Below are positions 2,736 to 59,104 of a DNA stretch of 64,000 nucleotides, piece by piece; position 1 is the first letter of the stretch; each line of letters starts with the position of its first letter. Below the pieces are notes generated by a model, which worked only from the letters and a program-made list of their open reading frames with translations, searched no databases and was not told where the DNA came from. The DNA lies in the sequence record PQ478073.1. One strand, given 5' to 3'. A program made the translations under genes and the position numbers. Source of the DNA: a phage.

Positions 2736-2817
2736 TAAATATTTCCTCAGAATAGATTATATATGATGTATTTATTTTAGTTAAAAGAAAAGGCCAACCA
2801 TAGTTGACCTTATAATA

Positions 2818-9221: not shown

Positions 9222-9228
9222 TATTTAG
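9222..9228 (-). promoter_or_regulatory. candidate late promoter (CTAAATA) for giant fibre gene
   Basis: Minus-strand CTAAATA ~35 nt upstream of ATG 9186 and just downstream of a terminator; resembles the T4-type late -10 element TATAAATA. Confidence 0.35.
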
Positions 9229-13545: not shown

Positions 13546-13553
13546 ATATTTAT
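13546..13553 (-). promoter_or_regulatory. candidate late promoter (ATAAATAT) for the fibre operon
   Basis: Minus-strand ATAAATAT 36 nt upstream of ATG 13510, in a divergent intergenic region. Confidence 0.35.
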
Positions 13554-13581: not shown

Positions 13582-13588
13582 ATAAATA
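13582..13588 (+). promoter_or_regulatory. candidate late promoter (ATAAATA) for plus-strand island
   Basis: ATAAATA 33 nt upstream of ATG 13621. Confidence 0.3.
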
Positions 13589-31636: not shown

Positions 31637-31643
31637 TATTTAT
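31637..31643 (-). promoter_or_regulatory. candidate late promoter (ATAAATA) for giant gene
   Basis: Minus-strand ATAAATA ~37 nt upstream of ATG 31600, just downstream of a terminator. Confidence 0.35.
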
Positions 31644-35199: not shown

Positions 35200-35206
35200 T
35201 ATTTAT
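35200..35206 (-). promoter_or_regulatory. candidate late promoter (ATAAATAT) for gp6-like gene
   Basis: Minus-strand ATAAATA(T) between the terminator and the SD of the 35141 start. Confidence 0.35.
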
Positions 35207-36157: not shown

Positions 36158-36165
36158 TATTTATA
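36158..36165 (-). promoter_or_regulatory. candidate late promoter (TATAAATA) for lysozyme gene
   Basis: Exact minus-strand TATAAATA 17 nt upstream of ATG 36141. Confidence 0.4.
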
Positions 36166-36177
36166 GTGCTAAAATAT

Positions 36178-38841
36178 TTATTGACATGCCTCCAAACGAC
36201 GAGCCATTAACTCCGCACGGCGGGTGGTTTGGCGATACCAAGCAGAATTGCGGATTTGTGCCGCTGCTTGTTTATAATTACCTTTTGCCATTTCTGATAA
36301 CATAGTTTTAAATTTCAATACACCACCTTTACCCATCTGAAATACCATTTGGCATAGTACTTGTTGAGCAAGATAAGGAGTTTTCATGTTATATGAAGCA
36401 TAAATTGATTTGGCATCATAAATTGCTTTACTACTATCACGAACTAACATATCATTTGCTTGTTGTTCAGTTATTCCATCAGAGAAGTTTTCACCGCTAA
36501 CAATTAAGTGACCGTAACCAATAGTTGGATATCCACGACTATCTAAATAACGCCAGAACTTACCATTACGATAATACCCCTTTGCTTGTTGATATTGTAA
36601 TGTACCCTCATATTCTTTTAATTCAGAAATAAACTGAGCATCACCAGGAACAACTTTCCAATCTATGGCTGTTTTATCAACATTACCTATATTATAAGTT
36701 GGTTGCTCAACTGGCGTAGTTGAAACACCACTTCTTTGTGTTCTTCTTCGACGAGGAACATGTCGTGAACCACGTTGTGAATAACCTGTACCAATTGTTT
36801 TAATTTTTGTAGTAACTACTAATTCATCACTATCAACAGAAGGTTGCACTACTGCTTGAGGTGCAGATTGATTGGTTGCTTTTCCTGCAATTAATGTTTT
36901 ATTGGCTGCGTCAGAACCAGTACCAGTTTGAGATGCATAAAATAGACCCGGATCAACTGAACCGCTAAAACCAAGCACGTTAGCTGATGTAACACGTATT
37001 TCAAACTGTATAACACCATTTGCTTTACCAACAACTTGGCCTTTTTGAACAACATCTTTGTTTAATAAATCAGATTGAATATTATAAAATACAGATTTAT
37101 ATCCTGACTTATGTTGTATTAACAGTGCACCATTAGTAATTACTATTACACCACCATCGGGTGCAACTATGTCACCTTTACATTGTATTTCCCATCCAGA
37201 ACGATCTGACTTCCCACCACTTTGTGTTGGAACACCTTTCCCCCAATAACCATATTGGCGAATAGTACCACTACATGGCATGAACATATGTAAACCTTCA
37301 TATGTAATACTATATCCAGTCATCCCAGGGTCAGATGTCATTAAATCTTGAGATTGCACTTGTTCAGTTTCTGATGTATAGTTAACAAACTGAACAGCTT
37401 CAGTGTCTTGTGCTACGGGTAATTCTGGTGATACATCATTTGCTGGTTGTGGTTGTACTGGTGATTCACTAGAACCACTTCCACCACCTTGTCTTGGTGG
37501 TTCAACATAACTACCATGATTTTCAGCGTTAACCCATGCAGCAATATCATGAATGTGTTCATTAAGACCAGCAGATGGTGTTCTAAAGTTTGGTGCAGTA
37601 AATTCAGCAGTACCGCTATTACCACCACTATTAACTGTTAATGTTTGACCACCACCACTAATAATTGCTGATGATGATCCAATTAGGTTTGCAGATGTTG
37701 CGGCAGAAATAGAAGCATTTGAACCAGCCGTAATATCAGTACTGCTACCACTTTGCATACGTAATGATGCAGCAGTAACTAAACGAAGGTCTGCCCCAGA
37801 ATTAACAACAACTTGTCCACCAACTTTTGCATCAAGAGCACCAATTAGATCTAATTTAGTATTTGCACCAACTCGTGCATTGAAATCTTGTCCGGTTTCA
37901 ATATTATATGAACGTCCAGCAGTAATATTAATATCTTGACCAGCACGAATATTAATATTCTTATCACAGTGCATGTCAATATCACCTTCACCAGTGAATT
38001 TTATACGTGCAGTGCCATCACGGTTAATTAAAAGAACATCACCAGTAGCTTCTGATAAAAGAAGTTGTGCACCACTACGTGTTTTTATTACGACACCTTC
38101 ATTTTTACGAGAACCAACACGTGTATCGTTTACTGGGTTATTAAATTGTGTATCTTGATATCCATCTGGGTCTTGATCCCACGTTGGTGCTGTTAATTCC
38201 TCTTCAGTATATCCATCATCAATAATAAAACTATTACCACGTGGCGAAGACATACCATATACAGTACTGGTGGTTTGTCGAGTACTACTACGATTCGCCA
38301 ACCCAGCTTCTTCGTCATATAAAAGGTTTTGCTTTTTAAGACCTGCGATAATTGGAACGTTAGCATATTTGTCTTGCATATCGGTAGTGATAGTGTTACG
38401 ATCATAGTCAGTAACAGGAAGTGGCATATCAGTTCCACCATAATTACTTACTTCAGTTGCCATGCCTGGAACCATAGTATTCATACGCTGGTCATATACA
38501 CAACCAATCCAATATGCTTGGAATGTACGGGCTTGTGCAAAAATTACAACAACTGTACACCCTACGTCTGGTGGTACTGCCCAAAAACCGTATCCTTTTG
38601 GATATTGACCATATGCATCAGCACTTGGAATACCTGGTGTTTTACCAGCAAAAGGAGACATGTAAGATGCTTCTATCCATGATTCTTTTGAGTTTTTATC
38701 ACTTTGAGAACCTTGTATCCAAACTTTCAGTTTTCCTGATTTAGTTGGATCTCTGTTATCCATAACAGTTGCTAACTGCGGATAAGATGGGTCAAAACGA
38801 CCCAACTGCTGTTGTGCATACTTTTTACTTGTATCTGCCAT
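36178..38841 (-). CDS. 5: baseplate central spike, gp5-like, with C-terminal T4-type lysozyme domain (887 aa)
   Basis: N-terminal OB-like region (GKLKVWIQG...); VgrG/gp5-like beta-helical repeats (INIRAGQDINITAGRSYNIETGQDFNARVGANTKLDL...); M23/LytM-like segment lacking the usual His/Asp zinc ligands (~36994-37323); C-terminal GH24 lysozyme (TIGYGHL, QMVFQMGKGGV; ~36181-36663). Confidence 0.75.
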   Translation of the reverse strand: MADTSKKYAQQQLGRFDPSYPQLATVMDNRDPTKSGKLKVWIQGSQSDKNSKESWIEASYMSPFAGKTPGIPSADAYGQYPKGYGFWAVPPDVGCTVVVIFAQARTFQAYWIGCVYDQRMNTMVPGMATEVSNYGGTDMPLPVTDYDRNTITTDMQDKYANVPIIAGLKKQNLLYDEEAGLANRSSTRQTTSTVYGMSSPRGNSFIIDDGYTEEELTAPTWDQDPDGYQDTQFNNPVNDTRVGSRKNEGVVIKTRSGAQLLLSEATGDVLLINRDGTARIKFTGEGDIDMHCDKNINIRAGQDINITAGRSYNIETGQDFNARVGANTKLDLIGALDAKVGGQVVVNSGADLRLVTAASLRMQSGSSTDITAGSNASISAATSANLIGSSSAIISGGGQTLTVNSGGNSGTAEFTAPNFRTPSAGLNEHIHDIAAWVNAENHGSYVEPPRQGGGSGSSESPVQPQPANDVSPELPVAQDTEAVQFVNYTSETEQVQSQDLMTSDPGMTGYSITYEGLHMFMPCSGTIRQYGYWGKGVPTQSGGKSDRSGWEIQCKGDIVAPDGGVIVITNGALLIQHKSGYKSVFYNIQSDLLNKDVVQKGQVVGKANGVIQFEIRVTSANVLGFSGSVDPGLFYASQTGTGSDAANKTLIAGKATNQSAPQAVVQPSVDSDELVVTTKIKTIGTGYSQRGSRHVPRRRRTQRSGVSTTPVEQPTYNIGNVDKTAIDWKVVPGDAQFISELKEYEGTLQYQQAKGYYRNGKFWRYLDSRGYPTIGYGHLIVSGENFSDGITEQQANDMLVRDSSKAIYDAKSIYASYNMKTPYLAQQVLCQMVFQMGKGGVLKFKTMLSEMAKGNYKQAAAQIRNSAWYRQTTRRAELMARRLEACQ

Positions 38842-42161: not shown

Positions 42162-42207
42162 CTTTTTGATTCTCCATAATAAGGGAACATTTGATGTATT
42201 TATACGT

Positions 42208-42292: not shown

Positions 42293-43132
42293 ATGACAAA
42301 TAGACCAAAGCGTAAAAAGTATCTCAATAATGCTGATTTACTTCGTGAAATACAAAAAAGTAAAATTTCATATTGCTGGTTATTAGACAAATCATATAGT
42401 ATGTATGATTATATTGTTTTTCATGAGTCAGAAATTACTGCTGAGTTACTAGAAAAAGCTAAGGCAGCACGAATTAAACGACTGAACAATGAAATGCTTG
42501 ATAGTATTCGTGAAAAGGAAAATATGAGTGCTAAAAAAGCTAAAGAATATGCAGATGAACACAATTTAGTTATCACTGACGTTCCAATTGATGAAGTTGT
42601 TATTCGTGTTATTACAGATGAACATATTCCACCAGATACTAGAGTTAACTTTGAACCATTCAAGCATTATATTGTAGATAATGAAGGTATTCTCTATGAA
42701 GTTTGTCGTTCTCACTGGAAAGGCGACCTTGAAACTGGTGAATTCAGTACTGTTCATGGTAAAATTACAAATGAACTTGGGAAGATGTTCATTAAACTTG
42801 CAGAGGAAATCTCACACAAATCTAATTACAGAAACTATACATACTTAGATGAAATGATGGGTGATGCAAGAATACAATTAGTTAAAAACGCACTTCTCTT
42901 TAAAGAGAGCATTCTTTATAAAAAAGATAAACCAGCAGTTCAGCTAAATCCTTTCTCTTACTATACATCATTCGTAAACAATAGTTTTCGTTCTATATTG
43001 AATAGTGAGAAAAATGTTCGAAATATACGTGATGATTTACTTGAAATGCATGGCTTTACGCCATCACATACACGTCAAATTGAAATTGAATTGAACATGA
43101 TTGAAAGGAAAAATGAAGATGGCTCTGTTTGA
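42293..43132 (+). CDS. 55: late-transcription sigma factor, gp55-like (279 aa)
   Basis: N-terminus KRKKYLNNADLLREIQKSK matches T4 gp55 (KPKYNYVNNKELLQAI); lies directly upstream of gp47/gp46 as in T4; ~90 aa longer than T4 gp55. Confidence 0.65.
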   Translation: MTNRPKRKKYLNNADLLREIQKSKISYCWLLDKSYSMYDYIVFHESEITAELLEKAKAARIKRLNNEMLDSIREKENMSAKKAKEYADEHNLVITDVPIDEVVIRVITDEHIPPDTRVNFEPFKHYIVDNEGILYEVCRSHWKGDLETGEFSTVHGKITNELGKMFIKLAEEISHKSNYRNYTYLDEMMGDARIQLVKNALLFKESILYKKDKPAVQLNPFSYYTSFVNNSFRSILNSEKNVRNIRDDLLEMHGFTPSHTRQIEIELNMIERKNEDGSV

Positions 43133-46846: not shown

Positions 46847-46854
46847 TATTTATA
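46847..46854 (-). promoter_or_regulatory. candidate late promoter (TATAAATA) for Endo VII-like gene
   Basis: Exact minus-strand TATAAATA ~30 nt upstream of ATG 46816. Confidence 0.4.
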
Positions 46855-47555: not shown

Positions 47556-47612
47556 CAATAATATTAAAATTAATCCTTTCATAATTCAATTCAAATAATT
47601 CTGTAGTTTAAA

Positions 47613-47641: not shown

Positions 47642-47652
47642 CTATATGAAAA

Positions 47653-47862
47653 TTAGTGCTTCTCGTTTTGTTTTTTAATTTTTTTATTAAAAGACTTAAC
47701 TAATAAGTCTCTATCTATTAATGGCATATTAAGGAGTGTTCCATAGTCAATGTTATCCATATATACAGAACATTCCATTAGTGCATTTTTGATTTCTGAC
47801 TTATTCAGTTCTATCTCCTTCAGTACTTCTTGTATTTCTTCAGGAGATGACTGGAGAAGCAT
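47653..47862 (-). CDS. hypothetical small protein (69 aa)
   Basis: Start overlaps the upstream stop (TAATG at 47860-47864), implying translational coupling; product unknown. Confidence 0.45.
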   Translation of the reverse strand: MLLQSSPEEIQEVLKEIELNKSEIKNALMECSVYMDNIDYGTLLNMPLIDRDLLVKSFNKKIKKQNEKH

Positions 47863-48698: not shown

Positions 48699-48789
48699 TT
48701 TATTAAATCTCCATGTAATAAATGTGTTTTAGTATTTATAAGACTAAAAAAGATTAAATTAAACTAATTTTTATATTCTCTATAGTTTC

Positions 48790-48796
48790 ATAAATA
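48790..48796 (+). promoter_or_regulatory. candidate late promoter (ATAAATA) for head-module first gene
   Basis: CATAAATAT ~33 nt upstream of ATG 48829; a TATAAT hexamer also present at 48801-48806. Confidence 0.3.
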
Positions 48797-48828: not shown

Positions 48829-51033
48829 ATGGCTGGAAATACAAGTGATTACCTACTCCAGCAGTTGGTTAATCAAACTAAAGATAACAACGATAGTTTG
48901 AGTGCTATACGTGAGTTATTGGCTGAAAATATAAAAAATGATAGAAAGAAATCCGGTTCTAAAAGTGGAAAACGTAATGGAAGTAATTCATCAAGTTCTG
49001 GAAACCGTGGCTCTCGAACAAATAACAAAGCTGATGATGGTAAAGAATTTGGAAAAATATTCAAATCATTATCATCTGAAGTATCGAATGTCGGCAAAAC
49101 TATGATGAGTACGTCTGCAAACGTTAGCAATGTTGTAAACTCACTAGGAATGAGTGCATCTTCATTTGCTGGTTCATTAGCAATGATCCCAGGTCCAGTT
49201 GGTGCAGCAGCATCTGCATTCAAATTGGTTGCTGACGCTGGTTTAGCAGTTTATAATGTGTTAAATGCACAGCTTGAAGTTTATAATAGAATAAACAGTG
49301 CTGGTGTCGCTCTATCTGAAGGTTACGGCTCCATATTAAAAGGTGCTGGTGCATCAATGATGAGTATTGATGCATTTGGTGAAGCATTACAAACTCATAG
49401 TGCCGTTGTTGCACAATTAGATGGTGCATATGGTGATGGTGTTTCTACATTTGGTAAATTATTGGGTACTGTGCAACAAGCACAAAATCAATTAGGTTTA
49501 TATGGTGTTTCTCAAAAAACATTAACTGATTTAACTGCACGTAATATTAAATTCCAAAAGCAATTTGGTGGAAGAGAAATGTTACGTAGTATGGATCAAG
49601 CAAAAAGTACTGAACAGTTTATCATGAGTATGACTAAGTTCAGTAAAAGTATGGGTGAGTCAGTTGATGCACTATTAAATAAAACACAAAACTTAGATAA
49701 ATCATTAGACACACGTTCAATGCAAATCGCATTACAAAACTATTCTGGATTATCTAGTAAAGCAGCAGTTGCAACATCAAAAGCATTTAACGAAGCTGCT
49801 GCCAGTATGGGTGATGCTGGTGCAGATTTTCTACGTTTAATTTCACATCGTTTAACTATTGGTGGAGTACCAGATGATTTATTGACTCCAGTACTGAACC
49901 AATTTGCTGATTTAGGTGAGAACTTGGTACGTAGTGGTGTTACTGATTCACAAGAAATTCGCCGTCAACAATTGGAATTTGTTAAAAAGAACAAAGAACT
50001 AATAAAGCAAGATTTATTAAATCAGATACAATTAGGAAACACTACGGCAGCAACCTTCAACCAACAACTACTTGATATGGAAGCTGCGATTAATGATCCT
50101 AAGAGTCAACCAGCAGATAAACTAACACAATTCACTGATAGATTCAATAGATGGATTAGTAAAGAATTTACTGAACCATTTAATAAAATGTATGCAGATA
50201 CACAAAATTCTATTGCGGATTACCTTACTGATATTGCAGACCGTACTGATGGTGCATGGGAATTTATCGGAGAGTTAGCACTTGATGGTTTTGGTTTGGT
50301 TCCTATTGCGAAAGATGCAGTTGCGTATTTGGATAGGATTGGTGGTGAGTTTGAGCAGTGGTTAGAAGGGTTAGGTACTGAAATTTTTGGTAGTGGATAT
50401 AATAAAGTTTCAGAAGCATTTGATAGCTTTATGAATAACCTAATGGATCTTCCTGGTAAACTTTGGGATTCTGTTAAAGGTTGGTTTGGTGGATCAGACG
50501 ACAAAGTAAAAGTAGAAAACAATTCTGTTACCGATGGTGCAGAAAAAGTTAATAATTATTTTGAAGAAAAAATGAATTCATTTGGTGATTATATTTCTAG
50601 TTCATTTGATGGTTTTTTAAAATGGAATTCAAGTAGAAACTTTAAACAACCAAAACCCCTTGATGAATCAGTTGCTGAAAAACTTATTAGTAGTGGTCTT
50701 GAAAATAAGCCAAGAGCAACTGCGAGAATCGAAAAATCTGAACATGTTGCACCATATGTTACCATAACTCCAAAAACTTTTGATAAATCAGCATGGGGTC
50801 CAAATGAACCACCAATTCAAGCTGAACCGGACGATTATGAGGCCATGAAAGCGATGATAAATAGTGGTAGTAGTATGGCAAATGCTAATAATAATGCCAC
50901 AATATCAGAAGACATGAAAGAGTTACTTAAAAAACTTGCTGATGTTAATGAGCAATCTCTATCTGCCGTGCAACAGACAAATAACTATCTAAGAACTATC
51001 TCTGAAAACACTCAAGGTGAGAGAAACAGTTAA
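48829..51033 (+). CDS. hypothetical virion-associated protein, Ala/Gly-rich helical (734 aa); possible tape-measure or internal protein
   Basis: Low-complexity basic/Ser N-terminus (GSKSGKRNGSNSSSSGNRGSR), long alpha-helix-type A/G/L/Q composition; directly upstream of the portal with the portal SD overlapping its stop. Confidence 0.35.
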   Translation: MAGNTSDYLLQQLVNQTKDNNDSLSAIRELLAENIKNDRKKSGSKSGKRNGSNSSSSGNRGSRTNNKADDGKEFGKIFKSLSSEVSNVGKTMMSTSANVSNVVNSLGMSASSFAGSLAMIPGPVGAAASAFKLVADAGLAVYNVLNAQLEVYNRINSAGVALSEGYGSILKGAGASMMSIDAFGEALQTHSAVVAQLDGAYGDGVSTFGKLLGTVQQAQNQLGLYGVSQKTLTDLTARNIKFQKQFGGREMLRSMDQAKSTEQFIMSMTKFSKSMGESVDALLNKTQNLDKSLDTRSMQIALQNYSGLSSKAAVATSKAFNEAAASMGDAGADFLRLISHRLTIGGVPDDLLTPVLNQFADLGENLVRSGVTDSQEIRRQQLEFVKKNKELIKQDLLNQIQLGNTTAATFNQQLLDMEAAINDPKSQPADKLTQFTDRFNRWISKEFTEPFNKMYADTQNSIADYLTDIADRTDGAWEFIGELALDGFGLVPIAKDAVAYLDRIGGEFEQWLEGLGTEIFGSGYNKVSEAFDSFMNNLMDLPGKLWDSVKGWFGGSDDKVKVENNSVTDGAEKVNNYFEEKMNSFGDYISSSFDGFLKWNSSRNFKQPKPLDESVAEKLISSGLENKPRATARIEKSEHVAPYVTITPKTFDKSAWGPNEPPIQAEPDDYEAMKAMINSGSSMANANNNATISEDMKELLKKLADVNEQSLSAVQQTNNYLRTISENTQGERNS

Positions 51034-51044: not shown

Positions 51045-52784
51045 ATGAGTTGGAAACGACATATGACAGTGGGAAGGTCTAAACTATCGACCATCCCAAA
51101 TCAGTCCAGTAATAGCAATAAATCAACAGGAACGAAAACAAATTTCGCTTCCTATCTTCCTGTTGTATATAATGGATTGGCAAACCGTACTGAGCGTTAT
51201 AGTCAGTATGAGCAAATGGACCAAGATCCTGAAATTAGAACTGCATTGAATATAATTGCTGACTTTTGTACCCAAAGTACTGAAGATTTTGGTTTACCAT
51301 ATAAAATCAAATATAAAGATGACATTGGTGATACTGAAGTAACGACTATTGAAGATCGTTTAGATGCATGGACTGAACAAAATGATTTTAAAACACGAAT
51401 GTATGAAATTGTGCGTGGTCTTCTGAAATATGGTGATCAATTTTTCATTCGAGATCCAGAAACATTCGATTGGTATTGGGTAAGCCCCAAAAATGTTGAG
51501 CAAGTATTTGTTAACGAAGCCACTGGTAAAACACCAGTAATTTATTATATACGTGACGTATCATTAAATTTGAAAGATAAAGTTTTTAGTAACCTTCAAG
51601 TAGGATTTGATAAAACCGCTTATCCAGGAGCTATTCCGACAACAATGGGTGGCGGTGGTTCAGTAGCTGCGGGTGGTGCATCTGGTTTTACAAGTCAAGG
51701 AAATACTGCTGACCCATTCAGTACTAACGGTCAATTAGACGTTATTCCTGTTGGTGCAGAACACGTAATTCATCTAACGCTAAATACAGGACAAGATGGG
51801 GTATGGCCTTTTGGTACTAGTATACTTGAGGACGTATTTAAAGTCTATAAGCAAAAAGAACTTCTGGAAGATAGTATCATAATTTATCGTGTACAACGTG
51901 CACCTGAGCGTCGTGTATTTAAAATTGATGTTGGTGATATGCAAGCACACCAAGCGATGGCTTATGTTGAAAGATTTAAAAATGAAATCCACCAGCGTAG
52001 AATACCTTCAAACAAAGGTGGAAGTACTTCATTAATGGATGCAGCATATAATCCATTAAGCATTTTAGAAGACTACTTTTTCCCACAAACTTCTGAAGGT
52101 CGTGGTTCAGATGTTCAAACATTACCAGGCGGTGATAACTTAGGACAAATTGATGACTTACGTTATTTTAATAATAAATTGATTCGTGGTCTTCAAATAC
52201 CAGCTTCTTATCTACCACAAGGTCCAGATGATGGTGGTGTTTCATTATTTGGTGATGGTGCTACACAAGCTATGGCAAGTGAATTGCGATTCAATAATCA
52301 ATGTATGCGTTATCAACGTTTAGTTGCAAAACATTTTGATGCTGAATTCAAAAGATTTATGGTTAAAAATGGATATAACATTAGTACTTCATCTTTTGAA
52401 GTTATTATGAATCCACCTATTAACTTAGCTTCTTATCGTAAAGCTGAACTAGATGCTAAACTAATTAATACATATCTTCCTCTTAATGACTTGCCTTATA
52501 TGGCGAAACAAACAATTCTTGAAAAAATGGGCTTTTCTAAAGCTGATATTGTTAAGAATGAACAAATGTGGTTACAAGAGAATCCACAAGATGGTTCCCA
52601 ACCTTCTGGTGGTGAAGAAGATTCCGCTGGATTACAGTCTGTTGGTATTGATGCTCCAAATGATCCTGGAATGGATCTTGGTATTGATGGAGAAGGTAAT
52701 TTGGAAAGTGCTGATGCCGAATACCAAGAGCAACAGAGTGGAAGTGGTGGTTTCAACCCTAATAATTTAGGCAATTCTTTTTAA
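51045..52784 (+). CDS. 20: portal protein, gp20-like (579 aa)
   Basis: [21 protein letters not shown] vs T4 gp20 [41 protein letters not shown] vs [20 protein letters not shown]. Confidence 0.9.
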   Translation: [579 protein letters not shown]

Positions 52785-52857
52785 ACATAAATAACAGTGT
52801 ATAAGAATGAGGGTTTATTTTTACCCTCATTTATAATGCATATTTCAAGGAGATCAA

Positions 52858-53085
52858 ATGTTAAAGGACATCTTTGAATCTAGCAGTGATTCAATGTACG
52901 ACCCTGAAGATGATCAGAACGTATATAAAATTACTGATTCCAGAAAACCGAAACTAACATTACAAGTATTAAACAACTTAAGAAAGTACCGTGAATTTAA
53001 AGCACATGAAGAACAACGCCGCAAAAATGTGGTTGCAGTTGTTTATGCCGCTGCACCAACTGGTGACGGTTCTGGGTTAATGTAA
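52858..53085 (+). CDS. small prohead core protein candidate (75 aa)
   Basis: Position between portal and protease matches T4 gp67/gp68-type small core proteins; AAGGAG SD; no motif evidence. Confidence 0.4.
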   Translation: MLKDIFESSSDSMYDPEDDQNVYKITDSRKPKLTLQVLNNLRKYREFKAHEEQRRKNVVAVVYAAAPTGDGSGLM

Positions 53086-53137
53086 ATCAAAAATCGCACT
53101 TTTTAAAGCTTTTAAAAAAGGCGATTTTATTCAGTAC

Positions 53138-53153
53138 TAAATAATATCATACT
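53138..53153 (+). promoter_or_regulatory. candidate late promoter block (C)TAAATAATATCATACT
   Basis: 16-mer TAAATAATATCATACT identical to the block upstream of the major capsid gene (55902-55917); sits after an AU-rich hairpin (53091-53127) and 34 nt before ATG 53187. Confidence 0.45.
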
Positions 53154-53186
53154 TTATACGAATGTAATATATCTATGGAGGATATA

Positions 53187-54035
53187 ATGGCGAATTTAAA
53201 ACTACTACAAGAAGCAATTGCGGCGTTTGCAAATGGCGAACAAGATATTGCTGATAAAAAAATGCGTAAGTATTTCGTTGAGCAAGCTCAAGAAATTAAC
53301 AAACAACTAGAAGAAAGCATGGAAGATGAAGACGACGATGAAGATTGTGAAGTCGAAGTTAAAGTCAAAGATGAAGAAAAGCTTGACGAAGATTTTGATG
53401 TACAACCAGACGAAGGTCTAAATGCTGAAATCGAATACACCCTTGGTGAAGAAGATGAAAGTGCAGAAGAAGAAGTTGAATTCTCTGCTGATGCAGATGG
53501 TGACGGTGAAGACGATGTTGACGTTGAAGTGAAAGCTGATGCTGATGTTCCTTCCGAAGACCAATGGGAATCAATCCAAGATGCTTTCCGTGGCCTACAA
53601 CAAATGTTTGATGAAATCGGTGACGGTGAAGTTGATCTAGATTCTGAAGAAGAAGTAGAAGATAGCGAAGAAGAAGTTGGCGTTGACGGTGACGACGAAT
53701 TTGCTGATGTTGAATTCGGTGATGAAAAATTCGGTGAATCCTTCAAACTAGAAAAAGTTGCTCCAGTTGATAAGAAAGAAAAAGCTGGCACTCATTCCAA
53801 ATCTCCAGTAGCACCAGAAGCTAAATCTCCAGTAGCAGGAGCAGAGCCAGTTAAATTCGCTAAGAAAACTGACCAAGCACCATTACTAGACCTAGATGAT
53901 AAATCTGTTCTACCAAAAGATAGTCTAGATCTTGGTAAAAATGCTCGCGGTGAAATGAAAGATGTTAAAGCACCAAAAACTACTGCATCTAATTCTAAAT
54001 CACCACTAAGCAAAGCACAACCTAAACTAAAATAA
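53187..54035 (+). CDS. highly acidic prohead core/scaffold protein (282 aa from ATG 53187)
   Basis: Extreme D/E content (EDEDDDEDCEVEVKVKDEEKLDEDFD...); GGAGGATATAATG start context mirrors the capsid gene (GGAGATATATAATG). Track start is 53175. Confidence 0.6.
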   Translation: MANLKLLQEAIAAFANGEQDIADKKMRKYFVEQAQEINKQLEESMEDEDDDEDCEVEVKVKDEEKLDEDFDVQPDEGLNAEIEYTLGEEDESAEEEVEFSADADGDGEDDVDVEVKADADVPSEDQWESIQDAFRGLQQMFDEIGDGEVDLDSEEEVEDSEEEVGVDGDDEFADVEFGDEKFGESFKLEKVAPVDKKEKAGTHSKSPVAPEAKSPVAGAEPVKFAKKTDQAPLLDLDDKSVLPKDSLDLGKNARGEMKDVKAPKTTASNSKSPLSKAQPKLK

Positions 54036-54038
54036 ATA
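54032..54038 (+). promoter_or_regulatory. candidate late promoter (ATAAATATCTG) for protease gene
   Basis: ATAAATATCTG, shared 11-mer with the 54692 site, overlapping the upstream stop codon. Confidence 0.3.
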
Positions 54039-54055
54039 TCTGAAAGGAGATCATT

Positions 54056-54679
54056 ATGAGTAGTATGATTCGTGAATGGTCTTCATTCAATGATTCTAAA
54101 GTTGTTTTGGAACATCGTGATAATGGATTTGGTGGGCGTGACTGCTATCTTCGTGGTATTGCTATTCAAGCCGACCAACGAAATTTGAACGAGAGAATTT
54201 ACCCTTTATCTGAAATTACAAGGGCAGTAAATAACATGAACCAGCGTTTAGCTAAAGGTGAAAGCATTCTTGTTGAATGTGACCATCCAGAAACACTAAC
54301 TATTAACCTAGACCGAGTAGCAGCAATGATTACTAAGGTTTGGATGGAAGGTGCTAATGGTATGGCAGAAATCAAACTACTTGATACTGCACATGGTCAA
54401 AATATCCGTAAAATGCTAGAGGCTGGTGTAAAACTTGGTGTAAGTTCTCGCGGTTCCGGTAACGTTGATTATAATGGAATAGTTTCTGATTTTGAAATTA
54501 TCACTATTGATATTGTTGCTCAACCTAGTGCTCCAGAAGCATACCCAACAGCGGTATTTGAATCTCTGATGAGTAAGTACGGATCACCTTGTAATAGTTC
54601 TAAAAAAATCACTGAATCTAAAAAAGTAAATAATTTAGATTCTGAAATATACGATTTTTTCAAGAAATTAAAAGGTTAA
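54056..54679 (+). CDS. 21: prohead core protease, gp21-like (207 aa)
   Basis: LVECDHPE and VSSRGSG resemble T4 gp21 VELGHP and FSMRGLVS; position between core proteins and scaffold. Confidence 0.7.
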   Translation: MSSMIREWSSFNDSKVVLEHRDNGFGGRDCYLRGIAIQADQRNLNERIYPLSEITRAVNNMNQRLAKGESILVECDHPETLTINLDRVAAMITKVWMEGANGMAEIKLLDTAHGQNIRKMLEAGVKLGVSSRGSGNVDYNGIVSDFEIITIDIVAQPSAPEAYPTAVFESLMSKYGSPCNSSKKITESKKVNNLDSEIYDFFKKLKG

Positions 54680-54690
54680 CATTTTAAAAA

Positions 54691-54721
54691 TATAAATATC
54701 TGTATGTTGAAGTACAGATAT
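54691..54721 (+). promoter_or_regulatory. candidate late promoter TATAAATA overlapped by a 9-bp palindrome
   Basis: TATAAATA 54691-54698; perfect inverted repeat ATATCTGTA-N8-TACAGATAT (54696-54704, 54713-54721) spanning the -10 element and the expected start site. Confidence 0.4.
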
Positions 54722-54745
54722 TTCAGTACTTAAAGGAGAGAACGA

Positions 54746-55861
54746 ATGTCTAAATTAGAAAAGCTTCTAAAAGAATCATCTCTTTCTGATGAGGCAAAAC
54801 AGCTAATTCAGGAAGCATGGAATGAAGAAAAGAATACACTAGCCGCAGAGATGCGTGAAGAAATGAAAGGCCGTTATCAGCAAGATTTGGCTGAACTAAC
54901 CGAAGGTTTGAACACTATGGTTACTCAAGTCATTGCTGAAGAAATGGGTGCTGTATATGAAGAGAAAAAACGTCTCGTTGAAGATCGTGTAACTCTACGT
55001 AAAACACTAAGCAATTTCTCTGCGTTTTCAAACTCTGTTTTGGCTGAAGAAGTTAAACAAATGCGTAAAGAACGTAAGCATCTTCATGAATGCATGGGTA
55101 AATTCGTTAATTTTTCTAACGGTATCCTAGCAGAAGAGCTAAAAGAATTCCACACTGAAAAACGTCAACTAGTTGAAACTCGCGTTAAACTACTTGCTGA
55201 AGGTTCACGTCAAATTGCTGAAGCTCGTAATAACTTCATCAAACGTACATCTGAAAGTGCTGCTAAATATATTGCAGAAACCACTCAGAAGAATCTATAT
55301 GCGTTGAAACAAGATCTAGTGGAAGCAAAACAAAATATGTTTGGTCGTAAAATCTTTGAAGCATTTGCTCAAGAGTTTAATGTCAAACAATTTAATGAAA
55401 ACTCATTGCTACGTTCCCTAACTGAATCAATTAAATCTAAAGAAGATGAAATTGCTCAAGTTAAGCAAGAACTACATGAAACTGCTAATGCCGTTAAAGC
55501 TGCTAAAACCAAACTACGTATTATGGAAGATGCACAAGCACGTAATGCGATTATGTCTGAACTAGTAAAACCACTAACTGCACAGCAAAAACAAATTATG
55601 GAATCCCTTCTAGCTACTTCACCTACTGAAAAGCTTAAAGAAGATTTCAGCAAGTACCATAAGTCAGTACTTAACGGTACTAAAGTAAATGAATCTGCTA
55701 CCACTCGTCAAGCAGTTCAGTCTTCCGCTAAGAAAACTCTTGCAGAAGGTAAAGTAATCACTGGCAACCGTCAGGCTATTGTTGAAAGCGAAGAAATGAC
55801 CGCTGACGATATGGCATTCCTAAAAGAACTCGATGTTCTTTCAGGTATCAATAAAAAATAA
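54746..55861 (+). CDS. prohead scaffold protein, gp22-like (371 aa)
   Basis: A/E/K/L-rich heptad-like coiled-coil composition; immediately upstream of the major capsid gene. Confidence 0.6.
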   Translation: MSKLEKLLKESSLSDEAKQLIQEAWNEEKNTLAAEMREEMKGRYQQDLAELTEGLNTMVTQVIAEEMGAVYEEKKRLVEDRVTLRKTLSNFSAFSNSVLAEEVKQMRKERKHLHECMGKFVNFSNGILAEELKEFHTEKRQLVETRVKLLAEGSRQIAEARNNFIKRTSESAAKYIAETTQKNLYALKQDLVEAKQNMFGRKIFEAFAQEFNVKQFNENSLLRSLTESIKSKEDEIAQVKQELHETANAVKAAKTKLRIMEDAQARNAIMSELVKPLTAQQKQIMESLLATSPTEKLKEDFSKYHKSVLNGTKVNESATTRQAVQSSAKKTLAEGKVITGNRQAIVESEEMTADDMAFLKELDVLSGINKK

Positions 55862-55899
55862 ACATTTTAAAGCATTTTAATAATCAAATTTTTCAGTTC

Positions 55900-55917
55900 T
55901 ATAAATAATATCATACT
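55900..55917 (+). promoter_or_regulatory. late promoter TATAAATA plus conserved 16-mer, for major capsid gene
   Basis: Exact TATAAATA (55900-55907) 45 nt upstream of ATG 55953; the same TAAATAATATCATACT block occurs at 53138-53153. Confidence 0.55.
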
Positions 55918-55952
55918 GAAAAACGAATATAACATCTTTAAGGAGATATATA

Positions 55953-57128
55953 ATGTCACAACTACTAAATGAATCCAAATGGGTAGCAGTAAAAGAGAAA
56001 CTAGTTGAAGGTCTACAGGGTACTCGTAAGTCTGTAATGGAAACTGTTCTTGATAACCATCGTAAAGTTATGCTAACTGAATCCGCAACTTCTGGTGCAA
56101 CTACCGCTGGTAACATCGCTACTCTAAACAAAGTGATTCTACCAATTATGCGTCGTGTAATGCCAACCGTTATTGCTAACGAAATCATCGGTGTTCAACC
56201 AATGACTGGTCCAGTTGGTCAGATCCACACCCTACGTGTGCAATATGCTGATAACGCACCTGGTGTTATCGCTGGTGAAGAAATGCTTTCTCCATACAAA
56301 ATCGCTAAATCCTACTCTGGTGATCTAAATGCGGATAATAGCAACCCACAAGCTGCTCCTACTAGCCAACTAGAAGGTACTATGGGTCGTCGCGTTAACA
56401 TCCGTATTCTACGTGAAACTGTTGAAGCGAAATCTCGTCGTCTATCTGCACGTTGGACTGTTGAATCTGCACAAGATGCTCAATCCCAACATGGTGTTGA
56501 CGTTGAAGCAGAACTAATGGCTGCAATCGCTCAAGAAGTTACCGTAGAAATCGACCAAGAGCTACTAAGCCGTCTACGTGCACTACCTGGTGCTGCTGCT
56601 GTAACTTATGACCAATCTAAAGTTACTGGTGTTGCAACCTTCGTTGGTGATGAGCACGCTGCTCTAGCAACTCTAATTAACCGTCAAGCAAACGAAGTTG
56701 CTCGTCGTACTAAGCGTGGTGCTGCAAACTGGGCTGTTGTTTCCCCAACTGCACTAACCATTCTACAATCTGCTACTACTTCTAGCTTTGCACGTACCAC
56801 TGAAGGTACTTTCGAAGCACCAACTAACGTTAAGTTTGTAGGTACTCTAAACAGCACTATGCGTATTTTTGTTGATACTTATGCAAGTGATGCAGAAGAT
56901 ATTCTAATTGGTTATAAAGGTAATGCAGAAACTGATGCTGGTGTGTTCTATTGCCCATACATCCCACTAATGGCTTCCGGTACTGTAATGGACCCTAACA
57001 CTGGGGAATTGGTCACAACTTTCTTAACCAGGTATGGTTATGTTCAGTTGACCGATAGCACCAGTTCACTAGGTAACGCTGCGGACTACTACAGCAAAAT
57101 CGCTATCAAAAACGTTACTTTCATGTAA
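55953..57128 (+). CDS. 23: major capsid protein, gp23-like (391 aa)
   Basis: RRVMPTVIANEIIGVQPMTGPVGQIHTLRVQYA vs T4 gp23 RRAIPNLIAFDICGVQPMNSPTGQVFALRAVYG; VEAKSRRLSARWTVESAQD vs IEAKSRQLKAAYSIELAQD; YKGNAETDAGVFYCPYIPL vs YKGPNEMDAGIYYAPYVAL. About 130 aa shorter than T4 gp23. Confidence 0.92.
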   Translation: MSQLLNESKWVAVKEKLVEGLQGTRKSVMETVLDNHRKVMLTESATSGATTAGNIATLNKVILPIMRRVMPTVIANEIIGVQPMTGPVGQIHTLRVQYADNAPGVIAGEEMLSPYKIAKSYSGDLNADNSNPQAAPTSQLEGTMGRRVNIRILRETVEAKSRRLSARWTVESAQDAQSQHGVDVEAELMAAIAQEVTVEIDQELLSRLRALPGAAAVTYDQSKVTGVATFVGDEHAALATLINRQANEVARRTKRGAANWAVVSPTALTILQSATTSSFARTTEGTFEAPTNVKFVGTLNSTMRIFVDTYASDAEDILIGYKGNAETDAGVFYCPYIPLMASGTVMDPNTGELVTTFLTRYGYVQLTDSTSSLGNAADYYSKIAIKNVTFM

Positions 57129-57174
57129 TTGTAATAGATTTAAAAGATTTAATCAAAAAAAAATAAAAACAATA

Positions 57175-57204
57175 GGGACTCTTCGGAGTCCCTTTTCTTT
57201 TTAT
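57175..57204 (+). terminator. strong intrinsic terminator after capsid gene (UUCG tetraloop)
   Basis: GGGACTC-ttcg-GAGTCCC followed by TTTTCTTTTTATT. Confidence 0.85.
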
Positions 57205-57214
57205 TAAAAAACCC

Positions 57215-57243
57215 TTGACACAATGTTCTGGAATGTATATAAT
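57215..57243 (+). promoter_or_regulatory. consensus sigma70 promoter (TTGACA-17-TATAAT)
   Basis: -35 TTGACA 57215-57220, 17-nt spacer, -10 TATAAT 57238-57243; ATG 57276 lies ~26 nt downstream of the predicted start site. Confidence 0.7.
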
Positions 57244-57275
57244 ACGCACATACACGAAAATAAAGAGACAAAATT

Positions 57276-58373
57276 ATGCCAAACGTAAGTATCAACAAAG
57301 AAGAGTTTATCAGCAAAATGACTGCTAAGTATGGTGAATTTGATTTCAGTACTTTAGTATTCAAAGCAAGTAAGACAACAGTGAAATGTAACAAGTGTGG
57401 AAAAGAAAACACCAAACCTGCACTTCGTCACATTGCATGTACATGTGCATCATGTTATTCAAACATGTCACAACGTTCAAACAACGACACATTCATCAGT
57501 ACTATAGAAACTAAATTTGGAAAAGATAAATTCAAATTTGATAAACTAAATTACACTAATGCTATATCAAAAGTAACAATTTTCTGCACAGATGAAGATC
57601 ACAATGATTACTTTGAAATTACACCCAATAAATTTCTTTCTGGTAAAGGATGCCCCGTATGTAATAAAAATGAAGCATACAGTACTGAAGAGTTCAAAGA
57701 AAAAGTAAAAGATAATTATGGTGATTTATTGGATTTAACTAACACGGTGTATGTAAATCAAAAAACTAAAGTAACTGTGTATTGTAACGCAGGTAATCAT
57801 GAATGGACAGTTGATCCAAAAACTTTACTTGTTGGTAAGACTGGATGTGGTACATGCTCCGGTAAAGGCGGTCGAAGTACTGAACGTTTCATTGAACTTG
57901 TGTCGCCTATCCATAACCATAAGTATGATTATAGCTTGGTGGATTACAAGACTAGTGATGAACATGTGGATATTATTTGTCCTGAACATGGTGTCTTTAA
58001 ACAAATACCCAAATCTCATATGGCAGGAAGAGGATGTCCATCATGTGGTGAGTATGGTTATCAACCATCAAAGCCTGGATATTTCTATGTACAAAAACTA
58101 TCTAATAACTCAAAAGTCGTTTACAAATACGGAATTACCGGAGACATGAAGAGACGAATTCATGAACAAAGTCGCAATTCTGAGTTCGAGCATGAATTAC
58201 TGGTAGAACGTTACTTTGAGGATGGTAATAAACCATTATTATTGGAAAAGTTTATCAAGCAATACATTGAAAGTGGTGTTGTAAGTACTGAAGAGTTACC
58301 GTCAGGATTTACTGAAACATTTGATGCTAAGTATCTTGAAAGTGTTTTAGAAATTGTAAATACTTTTAAGTAA
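57276..58373 (+). CDS. tandem zinc-ribbon protein with C-terminal GIY-YIG-like (T5orf172-type) domain (365 aa)
   Basis: Four repeats of C/H...CxxC modules (CNKCGKEN...CTCASC; CTDEDH...CPVC; CNAGNH...CGTC; CPEHG...CPSC); C-terminus GYFYVQK...VYKYGITGDMKRRIHEQ... matches the GIY...YIG..R pattern (~58077-58373). Confidence 0.55.
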   Translation: MPNVSINKEEFISKMTAKYGEFDFSTLVFKASKTTVKCNKCGKENTKPALRHIACTCASCYSNMSQRSNNDTFISTIETKFGKDKFKFDKLNYTNAISKVTIFCTDEDHNDYFEITPNKFLSGKGCPVCNKNEAYSTEEFKEKVKDNYGDLLDLTNTVYVNQKTKVTVYCNAGNHEWTVDPKTLLVGKTGCGTCSGKGGRSTERFIELVSPIHNHKYDYSLVDYKTSDEHVDIICPEHGVFKQIPKSHMAGRGCPSCGEYGYQPSKPGYFYVQKLSNNSKVVYKYGITGDMKRRIHEQSRNSEFEHELLVERYFEDGNKPLLLEKFIKQYIESGVVSTEELPSGFTETFDAKYLESVLEIVNTFK

Positions 58374-58396: not shown

Positions 58397-58747
58397 ATGT
58401 TAACTGTATACAAATTTAACAAAGAAGAGTACTTAAAGAGTCAGTACTCAAATATAGAAATAAATGTTCCTTATGGTACGTTAGTTGGATATGATGAAGC
58501 CACTGAAACATTGTATTATAATGATGATAGATTGGATTATAGTTTAGATTCATTCATTGAAGATATACTTAATACACATACTGAAGATATGTTGTATGAA
58601 GAATACATAGACCATTATAGAGAACGTATGTCGGTGCTGCATTCTGATGCTCCTGTACTAAACATAGCACAAGAACCATCGGAATTTCAGCCACATAATC
58701 CTTTTCAACGTTTAATTGATATTGGTTTAAAATTCACTATTAGTTGA
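58397..58747 (+). CDS. hypothetical acidic protein (116 aa from ATG 58397)
   Basis: Track start 58388 is TTG; ATG 58397 lies 9 nt after an AAAGGAG SD; product unknown. Confidence 0.45.
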   Translation: MLTVYKFNKEEYLKSQYSNIEINVPYGTLVGYDEATETLYYNDDRLDYSLDSFIEDILNTHTEDMLYEEYIDHYRERMSVLHSDAPVLNIAQEPSEFQPHNPFQRLIDIGLKFTIS

Positions 58748-58750
58748 TAG

Positions 58751-58779
58751 ATAAATATCTCCATATTAATGATGGAGAT
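58751..58779 (+). promoter_or_regulatory. ATAAATATCT late-promoter-like motif followed by an 8-bp inverted repeat that includes the SD
   Basis: ATAAATA 58751-58757; ATCTCCAT-N7-ATGGAGAT (58757-58764, 58772-58779) with GGAG inside the 3' arm. Confidence 0.35.
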
Positions 58780-58786
58780 TGAATCT

Positions 58787-59097: not shown

Positions 59098-59104
59098 ATA
59101 AATA
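59098..59104 (+). promoter_or_regulatory. candidate late promoter (AATAAATAT) for fibre gene
   Basis: ATAAATA ~32 nt upstream of ATG 59136. Confidence 0.3.

Follow-up and report, generated by a model that had tools for sequence, protein, structure and literature searches.

Probable T4-type late-promoter cores before the head genes of a 121Q-like jumbo coliphage, and the sequence shared beyond them

Introduction

The head-gene cluster of this phage raises the question of why two of its genes, those for an acidic head protein and for the major capsid protein, are preceded by an identical stretch of 16 bases. The original prediction set this repeat in a longer similar context, linked it to an ATAAATA motif recurring before late-type genes and read the whole as a T4-like, gp55-dependent late promoter grammar with a lineage-specific downstream extension. 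The window, the whole stretch of DNA analysed here, comprises 64,000 nt of sequence record PQ478073.1. It is 98-99.6% identical to Asteriusvirus genomes and, judged by sequence, its source is a 121Q/PBECO4-like jumbo coliphage of that genus. The non-coding share of the window is 4.5%. Rfam and tRNA scans of the whole window gave no matches, and a permissive Rfam scan of an 837-nt gene-free stretch gave sub-threshold, chance-level matches only. The palindrome AGTACT is 7.6-fold over-represented across the 121Q-type phage clade; it was rejected as a promoter-associated element, having no positional preference relative to gene starts.

Two similar blocks in the head cluster

The 16-mer TAAATAATATCATACT has exactly two exact copies in the window, at 53138-53153 and 55902-55917, as had been predicted; the nearest other matches carry 3 mismatches, and in 121Q, a close relative, the whole genome has the same two copies and no others. 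Both are intergenic, lie on the coding strand upstream of an ATG and have a TAAATA core at their start. The distance to the start codon is 33 nt for the acidic head protein gene and 35 nt for the major capsid gene. An exact repeat of this size is by itself unremarkable in 64 kb of AT-rich DNA, because order-2 Markov simulations of the window yield such pairs (2.4 on average, at least one in 80% of simulations). The non-random part of the repeat is its context. From TTCAGT to the ATG, 61/65 nt of the two upstream regions align with 50 identical columns (77%). Among 171 pairs of motif sites the acidic/capsid pair has the longest identical run directly 3′ of the motif (10 nt), and its similarity is the top of 153 pairs, with other pairs close at 74-78% and a median of 59%.

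Copy A of the block (53130..53163, plus strand) consists of TTCAGTAC, TAAATAATATCATACT and TTATACGAAT, and relatives keep its position. It contains the core CTAAATA at 53137-53143 (+), with a predicted transcript start near A53149, and serves the gene for the acidic head (virion structural) protein at 53187-54035 (+). Directly before it lies a terminator-like hairpin with a T run (53090..53128, +; -12.4 kcal/mol, z = -4.6), which ends the small gene 52858-53085. Copy B (55892..55928, +) consists of TTCAGTTCTA, the 16-mer and GAAAAACGAAT, contains the full T4-type TATAAATA at 55900-55907 (+), with a predicted start near A55913, and serves the major capsid protein gene at 55953-57128 (+). A bidirectional GC-rich terminator at 57174..57193, after the capsid gene, closes the head-gene transcription unit.

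Form of the proposed promoter core

In phage T4 the late promoters have the sequence TATAAATA, and gp55 reads them together with gp33 and the gp45 clamp. The reading preferred here, with a probability of about 0.8, is that the two blocks are the promoter and initiation regions of two late transcription units built on the T4-type ATAAATA core. The functional core would be these seven bases, at times CTAAATA or the full T4 form. Host RNA polymerase with a minimal sigma factor of the gp55 type, the product of the phage gene at 42293-43132, would read this core as a -10-type element, and a -35 element would play no part. Transcription is predicted to start about 6 nt past the last A of the core, as in the T4 geometry, where A is enriched: it stands at +6 downstream of the motif in 15 of 19 window sites and in 25 of 36 genome sites. 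The predicted 5′ leaders of about 10-58 nt would include the ribosome-binding site.

Sequence logos of the 19 window and 36 genome sites show conservation of the 7-bp core alone, followed by a base that is never G. The window sites read ATAAATA in 17 cases and CTAAATA in two, and six of them, the capsid gene among them, carry the full octamer. With T in 12 of 36 sites, the first base of the T4 octamer is not conserved. In both sets the logos are flat from -30 to -1 with no conserved -35 element, a mild T-richness at -10 to -7 being due to the preceding terminator T runs, and no extended -10 element accompanies ATAAATA. A sigma-70 scan gave no matches at ATAAATA sites and none on the coding strand over either block copy. 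No sigma-70-like promoter was found in the head cluster (52500-57130), and the single strong match in 52500-57400 lies at 57215-57243, before an endonuclease gene. Replication and early-type genes would use sigma-70-like promoters instead.

ATAAATA sites are positionally conserved in at least four named genera. At four head-gene positions the motif is kept in Eneladusvirus, Mimasvirus, Alcyoneusvirus, fENko-Kae01, XaC1 and IMG/VR relatives, and its flanks drift across these relatives. Sites of the window have positional orthologues in GAP32, Yen9-03, RaK2, K64-1, Kae01 and XaC1. Of the grammar proposed at the outset, the gp55-type late promoter system is supported by the enrichment of the motif, its strict orientation toward virion and morphogenesis genes and the lack of a -35 element; the lineage-specific extension as a part of that grammar is not.

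The sequence beyond the core

The shared ATATCATACT would span about -5 to +5 around the predicted start, and the two promoters most likely share it because the initiation region of very highly expressed late genes is under a common constraint, and/or because their two cassettes descend from one. As promoter grammar the extension fails, since the logos show the core only and a held-out weight matrix ranks it as average. With a matrix built from the other promoters the block extension ranks 15th-29th of 40, and on this ground the idea that it fits a weak general consensus better than the other promoters do was also rejected. The sequence TAAATAATATCAT is common to 4 of about 40 promoters in 121Q; the extension thus marks a small sub-family of four 121Q promoters and not a general grammar. 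The hexamer ACGAAT was rejected as a common 5′-leader element, since 3 copies in 36 leaders, where 0.56 would be expected, are too weak a signal. In other genera the extension is reduced to YATAY at the same two head genes, with changed spacer and flanks. YATAY lies 4-5 nt past the core, at the predicted start, and all genera examined keep it at the two head promoters. The exact 16-mer is found in the Asteriusvirus lineage alone: in Kae01/L009/L010 the pair is ATGACATACT and ATAACATACT, and in GAP32/Yen9-03 it has diverged further.

The identity beyond the core could be historical: a promoter/leader cassette copied or gene-converted within the head cluster, with the extra 10 nt functionless. 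This is a tentative possibility that draws on several of the results above. The 77% identity extends over all 61-65 nt from TTCAGT up to the ATG, the occurrence of TAAATAATATCAT at four late promoters of 121Q is far beyond chance for a 7-nt extension, the extension scores only average on the matrix from the other promoters, and the exact 16-mer is confined to one lineage. Against such a history, the retention of YATAY at both promoters in all genera examined, while spacer and flanks change, argues for selection on the start-site region. The similarity of the pair is also only marginally above that of other promoter pairs, and a recent copy event is therefore not required.

Somewhat less probable is that the sequence shared past the core works chiefly at the RNA level, through a TTTTTCAGT/ACTGAAAAA hairpin formed in scaffold-gene read-through transcripts, where it could act as a 3′-end stabiliser, a processing site or a weak attenuator. 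Such a role is compatible with the promoter function of the core. The inverted repeat (55889..55923, +) encloses the capsid-gene promoter in a 17-nt loop, so that promoter-initiated capsid mRNA would carry the 3′ arm only. Its fold of -6.7 kcal/mol has a z-score of -3.2 (equalled by 4 of 200 shuffles), and in four genera the arms stay complementary despite changes (CAGT/ACTG, CTGT/ACAG, TTGT/ACAA), to which G-U-compatible single changes on the sense strand are added. The neighbouring scaffold and GIY-YIG late promoters are likewise nested in hairpins. Before the scaffold gene (54746-55861) the motif (T)ATAAATA at 54692..54698 (+) overlaps a conserved hairpin at 54694-54723 (+; -12.3 kcal/mol, z = -4.05) in its 5′ arm. 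Before the GIY-YIG endonuclease gene (58787-59095) ATAAATA at 58751..58757 (+) immediately precedes a hairpin at 58747-58788 (+; -14.2 kcal/mol, z = -3.7) that sequesters the Shine-Dalgarno sequence. Some 121Q late promoters also lie inside terminator hairpins. Formal covariation support for the capsid hairpin is weak, with 80.6% paired cells compared with 77% for shuffles, two-sided changes in only 2 pairs, and an equal score when the register is shifted by +2. The stem is largely made of a run of T opposite a run of A, a trivial pairing, and copy A has a 4-bp equivalent only, with a fold no better than shuffles (z = -0.56). Structure is not enriched at late promoters (mean z -0.69, against -0.74 in control intergenic windows), and promoter-enclosing hairpins as a general feature were rejected, their z-score distribution equalling that of control intergenic DNA.

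It is distinctly unlikely that the two highest-demand head genes and two further late genes of 121Q share an extended class of gp55-type promoter in which a conserved start-site element adds to the core. The class may have the form TAAATA-N4-YATAY generally and ATATCATACT in this lineage, with a complementary flanking stem at the capsid gene. To our knowledge, no start-site or 'discriminator' element of this sort has been described for T4 late promoters. If the class were true, it could give maximal late output or allow promoter-initiated RNA to be told from read-through RNA, and the extra N-terminal domain of the phage sigma factor might read the start-site element.

Core sites across the window

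About 19 window sites would drive head, baseplate, tail and tail-fibre genes, and they also precede endonuclease VII and GIY-YIG genes. Asteriusvirus annotation labels these genes as virion or morphogenesis genes. Many sites lie immediately 3′ of a terminator hairpin with its T run and would form terminator-promoter cassettes. Besides the sites already described, the plus strand of the head cluster carries ATAAATA at 52787..52793, before the small gene 52858-53085 and kept in Yen9-03, GAP32 and RaK2. A further copy at 54032..54038 (+) shares bases with the stop codon that ends the acidic protein gene, and 17 nt separate it from the prohead protease gene downstream (54056-54679); it is the weakest candidate and is found in the closest relatives only. 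The motif at 59098..59104 (+) precedes a tail fibre gene (59136-60746).

Two pairs of sites are divergent. In one, ATAAATA at 48790..48796 (+) precedes a structural gene (48829-51033) and (T)ATAAATA at 48733..48739 (-) the baseplate hub gene (47862-48698); in the other, ATAAATA at 13582..13588 (+) precedes a structural gene (13621-14118) and ATAAATA at 13547..13553 (-) a tail protein gene (12395-13510). The remaining sites are on the minus strand. ATAAATA at 2769..2775 precedes a structural gene (771-2735), and CTAAATA at 9222..9228 precedes the long tail fibre gene (3661-9186) by 35 nt. Terminator hairpins precede both the ATAAATA at 31637..31643, before a giant structural protein gene, and that at 35200..35206, before a gp6-like baseplate wedge gene (31680-35141). 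By the 121Q annotation the true start of the giant gene is probably at 31600, 36 nt downstream of the motif. A tandem of (T)ATAAATA (36158-36164) and ATAAATA (36175-36181), together 36158..36181, precedes a baseplate/lysozyme gene (35653-36141). The sites at 54032 and 36158, 16-17 nt from the ATG, may be of doubtful function. (T)ATAAATA also occurs at 42197..42203, before the structural gene 41430-42161 at the head of the baseplate operon, and at 46847..46853, before the endonuclease VII (T4 gp49-like) gene 46325-46816.

The sigma factor

The gene for a gp55-like late sigma factor of 279 aa, assigned by homology, lies at 42293..43132 (+). It has its own extended -10 sigma-70-like promoter and not ATAAATA, and gp47 and gp46 homologues follow downstream in the relative order of T4 genes 55-47-46. 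The protein is structurally very close to T4 gp55 and is extended at its N-terminus by an alpha/beta domain of some 120-150 residues, for which no PDB match was identified. A PDB sequence search and Pfam were both negative for the sigma factor, and the idea that the N-terminal domain is a fused gp33 was rejected, BLASTP showing no similarity. A phmmer search with T4 gp33, gp45 and DsbA against all 121Q ORFs gave no match; its sensitivity was too low, because the true gp55 homologue was missed as well. Ten neighbouring genes picked by guess gave no PHROG function either. For Pectobacterium phage CBB no gp33 or gp45 homologues are reported (Buttimer 2017, PMC5259590). Orthologues of gp33 and PCNA-type clamps are reported for the 'group 2' jumbo phages (Iyer et al. 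2021), which may or may not include 121Q. As gp33 and gp45 homologues were not detected, activation may not be T4-like.

Host sigma-70, or a second, RpoD-like sigma factor of the phage, might instead use the motif as a -10-like element, which we consider very improbable. Such a second factor is encoded by 121Q gene 167, and the pairing of ATAAATA with the gp55-like protein is for this reason by analogy only. A sigma-70-type reading is opposed by the lack of both a -35 and an extended -10 element, by the empty sigma-70 scan at motif sites and by the separate sigma-70-like promoters of early-type genes, the gp55-like gene included. The motif moreover has 7 of the 8 bases of the element recognised by T4 gp55 (Geiduschek and Kassavetis 2010, cited in PMC5259590), and the structure of the homologue is very close to that protein.

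Frequency and placement of the motif

The window contains 18 copies of ATAAATA, 9 on each strand, of which 15 are intergenic, 2 overlap the stop codon of the preceding gene and one is intragenic (50857). All except one (17 of 18) are oriented to a same-strand start 6-64 nt downstream, or 16-64 nt after correction of start codons. Two CTAAATA variants precede the acidic protein gene and the long-tail-fibre gene. With AT-only 7-mers (14% intergenic) as reference, 15 or more intergenic copies out of 18 has a binomial p of 8e-11. In the 121Q genome ATAAATA ranks 1st of 16,384 7-mers for intergenic enrichment (28 of 55 intergenic; p = 1e-17). The comparison with background frequency suggested for the original prediction thus came out in its favour: the motif is about five times rarer overall than composition predicts (55 observed, about 293 expected), yet it is the top intergenic-enriched 7-mer. 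Such genome-wide depletion is as expected if selection acts against stray promoters.

By manual mapping onto the 121Q annotation, about 38-40 of its 55 sites precede annotated genes, including those for tail sheath, tail tube, many 'virion structural proteins' and one spanin. In the window the motif is carried by 16 of 28 late-type genes and 2 of 14 others (Fisher p = 0.01), and the late-type genes lacking it are mostly operon-internal. The total of about 19 sites serving about 18 genes upholds the claim of a motif before late-type starts on both strands, for which 'at least twelve' was too low. A chance origin of the recurrences in AT-rich intergenic DNA, as the expected occurrence of an exact 16-mer repeat in 64 kb and an unenriched 16-mer search at 3 mismatches (7 matches, 3.6 expected) might suggest, is refuted by the strict orientation of ATAAATA toward gene starts, its five-fold depletion, its first rank in intergenic enrichment and its conserved position across genera.

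Relation to T4 and to sister phages

The likeness to T4 extends over several features. The element is an A/T-only -10-type sequence with the same 7-bp core and no -35, matching 7 of 8 octamer positions; it precedes head, tail, baseplate, fibre, endonuclease VII and GIY-YIG endonuclease genes; it is depleted elsewhere in the genome; and a gp55-fold minimal sigma factor is encoded next to gene 47/46 homologues. T4 gene 49 and I-TevI likewise have late promoters. Departures from T4 are that the leading T of the octamer varies and that the core may begin with C (CTAAATA); because that T is not conserved, recognition may differ in detail. The sigma factor has 279 aa with the additional N-terminal domain, compared with 185 aa in T4; gp33 and gp45 homologues were not detected here by the low-sensitivity phmmer search, and the start sites here are predicted ones.

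Late promoters nested in hairpins are known in T4 for the lysozyme gene e, soc, gene 49 and I-TevI. Several late promoters of the window similarly lie in or at the edge of hairpins, and from those within hairpins the late transcript would lack the 5′ arm. The 3′ arm of the GIY-YIG gene hairpin holds the Shine-Dalgarno sequence, exactly the I-TevI layout. The capsid-promoter hairpin differs in not touching the ribosome-binding site, and translational unmasking is therefore not its role there.

For Pectobacterium phage CBB, a 'promoter 3' of the form ATAAATA/CTAAATA has been predicted in silico (Buttimer et al. 2017, PMC5259590, Table S7), the same motif is reported there for Cronobacter phage GAP32, and a gp55-like sigma factor is noted (PMC5259590). 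That motif, also from the Rak2-like jumbo clade, has the same consensus with A/T-rich sequence downstream and precedes structural genes; it differs in coming from MEME on structural-gene upstream regions only, in other genera (PMC5259590). The available text of the paper contains no genome-wide depletion, orientation statistics, cross-genus positions, start-site A or extended sub-family (PMC5259590). Promoters are not discussed in the RaK2 genome paper. No mapped 5′ ends for phages of this clade turned up in the literature; the single transcriptome found for a relative, that of PA5oct, gave sigma-70-like promoters only, with little transcription of structural regions (PMC7318152). No published description of the motif in the 121Q/PBECO4 genus was found in the literature. 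The motif is of a kind known from T4 and, because it was already predicted for sister genera, the discovery is incremental.

Implications

For annotation, the sites offer a usable map of transcription across the structural region in therapeutic and jumbo coliphages of the 121Q/PBECO4 type, with late promoters, terminator-promoter cassettes and operon heads placed and some start codons corrected. The capsid-gene promoter with its leader is a natural candidate for strong late-expression cassettes in engineering. As the T4 co-activators were not detected, the question arises of how late transcription is activated in this 350-kb branch. In evolutionary terms, the minimal T4 late-promoter logic, an element of the 8-bp class with a gp55-fold sigma factor, would have been retained in this very distant lineage.

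Probable late promoters of the T4 type

The original prediction, that this phage carries T4-like late promoters of the gp55 type, is well supported by sequence statistics, by conservation and by a structurally verified homologue of gp55. The 7-bp core, ATAAATA, occurs 18 times on the two strands of the window. Of these, 15 lie wholly between genes, two share bases with the stop codon of the preceding gene and one (at 50857) is intragenic. All 17 non-intragenic copies are directed at a start on the same strand 6-64 nt away, which bears out the proposed recurrence of the motif before gene starts on both strands. The intergenic excess is clear against the AT-rich background (p = 8e-11) in a window that is 4.5% non-coding and in which 14% of all AT-only 7-mers are intergenic. 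Genome-wide counts were made on the complete assembled genome of phage 121Q, where ATAAATA ranks first among 16,384 7-mers for intergenic enrichment (28 of 55 copies, p = 1e-17), with 55 copies observed versus about 293 expected from base composition. A lack of enrichment is thus clearly refuted and the motif is real. An origin of the motif as a by-product of stop codons is ruled out by two divergent intergenic regions (13547/13582 and 48733/48790), each holding one copy per strand. Manual mapping to the 121Q annotation places about 38-40 of the 55 sites upstream of annotated genes, most of which encode a 'virion structural protein', including the tail sheath and tail tube. The variant CTAAATA precedes the acidic protein gene and the long-tail-fibre gene. 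In the window no early-type gene, the DNA polymerase gene included, is preceded by ATAAATA; two such genes, the ClpA-like and gp55-like genes, have sigma-70-type or extended -10 promoters.

Core-anchored logos of 19 window sites and 36 genome sites contain an invariant 7-mer, a base 3′ of the core that is never G and nothing similar to a -35 element. The base 5′ of the core is without preference, so the first T of the T4 octamer is not conserved. The sixth position past the core, which is exactly the transcript start expected from T4 geometry, is an A at 15 of 19 window sites and 25 of 36 genome sites. The T runs of terminators account for a mild excess of T at -10 to -7. The same ATAAATA/CTAAATA motif was predicted before structural genes of phage CBB as 'promoter 3' and compared to T4 TATAAATA; a gp55-like sigma factor was noted, and GAP32 also has the motif (Buttimer et al. 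2017, PMC5259590). For the 121Q/PBECO4 genus no such promoter description was found in the literature, nor was 5′-end mapping for the clade.

The gp55-like sigma factor

The gene at 42293-43132 is annotated in 121Q as 'sigma factor for late transcription' and is followed by gp47 and gp46 homologues. Its 279-aa product matches PHROG 234 'late sigma transcription factor' (E = 8e-18) and is 24% identical to T4 gp55 (E = 2e-4), and an AlphaFold model based on 32 homologues reaches a pLDDT of 87. The relationship to gp55 was missed by Foldseek, Pfam and PDB sequence searches. T4 gp55 is shorter, at 185 aa. An extra N-terminal alpha/beta domain of ~120-150 residues (42293-42700) is confidently modelled and conserved in all homologues; no BLASTP similarity to gp33 and no PDB match were identified for it. 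A phmmer search of 121Q gave no gp33 or gp45 homologue, but was too insensitive to count as negative. Neither protein was reported for CBB (Buttimer 2017, PMC5259590), and gp33/gp45 are described in 'group 2' jumbo phages (Iyer 2021), a group that may or may not include 121Q.

The repeated block in the head-gene cluster

Positions 52000-58000 are 99.6% identical to Escherichia phage vB_EcoM_CRJP21 and 98.2% identical to 121Q, from whose RefSeq annotation the gene names were transferred. Asteriusvirus genomes, including that of 121Q, are about 350 kb in size. The two copies of the repeated block, copy A (53130-53163, +) and copy B (55892-55928, +), lie within a head-gene cluster with the order of T4 genes 20-67/68-21-22-23: portal (51063-52784), a 75-aa protein (52858-53085), acidic virion structural protein (53187-54035), prohead protease (54056-54679), scaffold (54746-55861) and major capsid protein (55953-57128). 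A sigma-70 scan detected no sigma-70-like promoter within this cluster.

The 16-mer was claimed to be duplicated before the acidic protein and capsid genes, and both copies are indeed exact (53138 and 55902). They are the only ones in the whole window, and the whole 121Q genome holds no further copy. Order-2 Markov simulations of the window yield 2.4 exact 16-mer pairs on average, so that the repeat is unsurprising by itself. Its non-random part is the context of the copies: both lie between genes and on the coding strand, at a distance of 33 and 35 nt from the start codon that follows, with the TAAATA core first. Right after the core they share the longest identical run (10 nt) among 171 motif-site pairs. 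Aligned from TTCAGT to the ATG, 50 of 65 columns are identical, the top value of 153 pairs and barely above the next.

The lineage-specific downstream extension that had been proposed holds for a few promoters and not for the whole class. The shared bases ATATCATACT lie roughly -5 to +5 from the predicted start, which would be near 53149 in copy A and near 55913 in copy B. They are missing from most promoters in the logos and get no more than an average score from a matrix derived from the other promoters, and are therefore not promoter grammar. In 121Q, TAAATAATATCAT is also present before structural gene 618 and the Rz-like spanin gene, giving a sub-family of four promoters, more than chance would produce. 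From genus to genus, TAAATA-N4-(C/T)ATA(C/T) is retained at the two head promoters with changes in the 4-nt spacer, which suggests that the start-site region is under selection. That the two 16-mers are exactly alike is specific to the lineage and can be explained either by a shared constraint or by a common origin of the cassettes.

The TTCAGT left flank and the ACT at the end of the 16-mer are also parts of an inverted repeat, and a stem at the capsid promoter is a tentative rival or additional explanation. The arms, TTTTTCAGT (55889-55897) facing ACTGAAAAA (55915-55923), would hold the promoter in a 17-nt loop. The fold has a predicted energy of -6.7 kcal/mol (z = -3.2), and in relatives the arms are complementary with other bases (CTGT/ACAG, TTGT/ACAA and G-U-compatible single changes on the sense strand). 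However, the covariation is only suggestive, with two pairs changing on both sides, a score reached by 8 of 500 shuffles and an equal score when the register is slid by +2. Confidence in the stem is low for this reason, and because copy A has no convincing equivalent and late promoters in general are not enriched in structure.

The left flank of copy A contains one copy of the palindrome AGTACT (53133-53139). This hexamer, often found as CAGTACTG, is 7.6-fold over-represented in 121Q (903 copies) and 5.4-fold in the window (119 copies), by far the most of any palindromic hexamer (64 in all), the runner-up being at 2.3-fold. Zero copies are found of the GC-containing palindromes AGCGCT, AGGCCT, CAGCTG and CCATGG. 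Coding copies exceed a synonymous-codon shuffle 3.5-fold in all three frames, which indicates selection at the DNA level. The spread along the genome is almost random, with a twofold density in intergenic DNA. The excess is common to Yen9-03, GAP32, RaK2, K64-1, Kae01 and XaC1, and is not seen in PA5oct, T4 and more distant relatives. It is the most surprising observation and is unrelated to the late-promoter finding; no published mention of it was found in the literature.

Terminators, leaders and inserted genes

Hairpin-plus-T-run terminators have their 3′ end 8-12 nt upstream of the core at copy A (53090-53128), the gp6-like gene and the giant structural gene. A terminator hairpin and T run followed by ATAAATA within about 10 nt is a recurrent cassette (53090-53143; 35195-35245 and 31630-31690, both on the minus strand). 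In 121Q the hairpin that terminates the upstream gene encloses the late promoter in at least two cases (18786 and 35042). The capsid gene is followed by a strong, bidirectional GC-rich terminator (57174-57193). Past it, a sigma-70 promoter of perfect consensus, TTGACA-17-TATAAT (57215-57243), drives an endonuclease gene (57276-58373), an insertion between the capsid and tail-fibre genes.

Late-gene leaders of the window and of 121Q are rich in ATGGAG, a hexamer made up of AT and a Shine-Dalgarno sequence: the 45 nt that follow the late-promoter cores contain 11 copies versus 0.67 expected, which suggests a preferred ribosome-binding-site context on late mRNAs. At the GIY-YIG endonuclease gene (58787-59095), ATAAATA (58751-58757) is followed at once by a hairpin, ATCTCCAT/ATGGAGAT (58747-58788, +), that sequesters the Shine-Dalgarno sequence (-14.2 kcal/mol, z = -3.7). 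A transcript begun at the late promoter would be missing the 5′ arm of the hairpin. Late promoters nested in hairpins are found at I-TevI, e, soc and gene 49 of T4, with the same layout as here.

Longest-ORF starts are probably wrong at several genes (53175 versus 53187; 31630 versus 31600; 12395-13546; 41430-42251). The starts annotated in 121Q are preceded by GGAG and give a motif-to-ATG distance of 33-36 nt instead of 6-21 nt. In 121Q an HNH endonuclease gene (314100-314864) lies between the gp6-like and gp25-like baseplate genes. It is missing in the window (35141-35243), and the late promoter of gp6 in the window is located before the HNH gene in 121Q instead. An 837-nt stretch (46817-47652), also unannotated in 121Q, is without a credible ORF; on the minus strand it contains a terminator at ~47610-47637, and its core of ~350 nt is relatively rich in GC. 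It contains no tRNA or Rfam family at threshold, its fold z-score is only -1.6, and it may represent a non-coding RNA or the remains of a gene.

Conservation across relatives

The comparison covered 80 loci retrieved from IMG/VR via the capsid protein, with added GenBank relatives. In the enterobacterial Rak2-like clade, members of which include Eneladusvirus, Mimasvirus, Alcyoneusvirus, fENko-Kae01 and XaC1, the core is in the same place before the small, acidic, scaffold and capsid genes while its flanks diverge. In loci L022-L088, which come from environmental metagenomes and show 64-72% capsid identity, only ~15-40 nt separate the scaffold and capsid genes, and these contain no ATAAATA. 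With almost no spacer and no motif, the two genes are presumably transcribed together. A promoter of its own for the capsid gene thus seems to be a trait of the enterobacterial Rak2-like clade.
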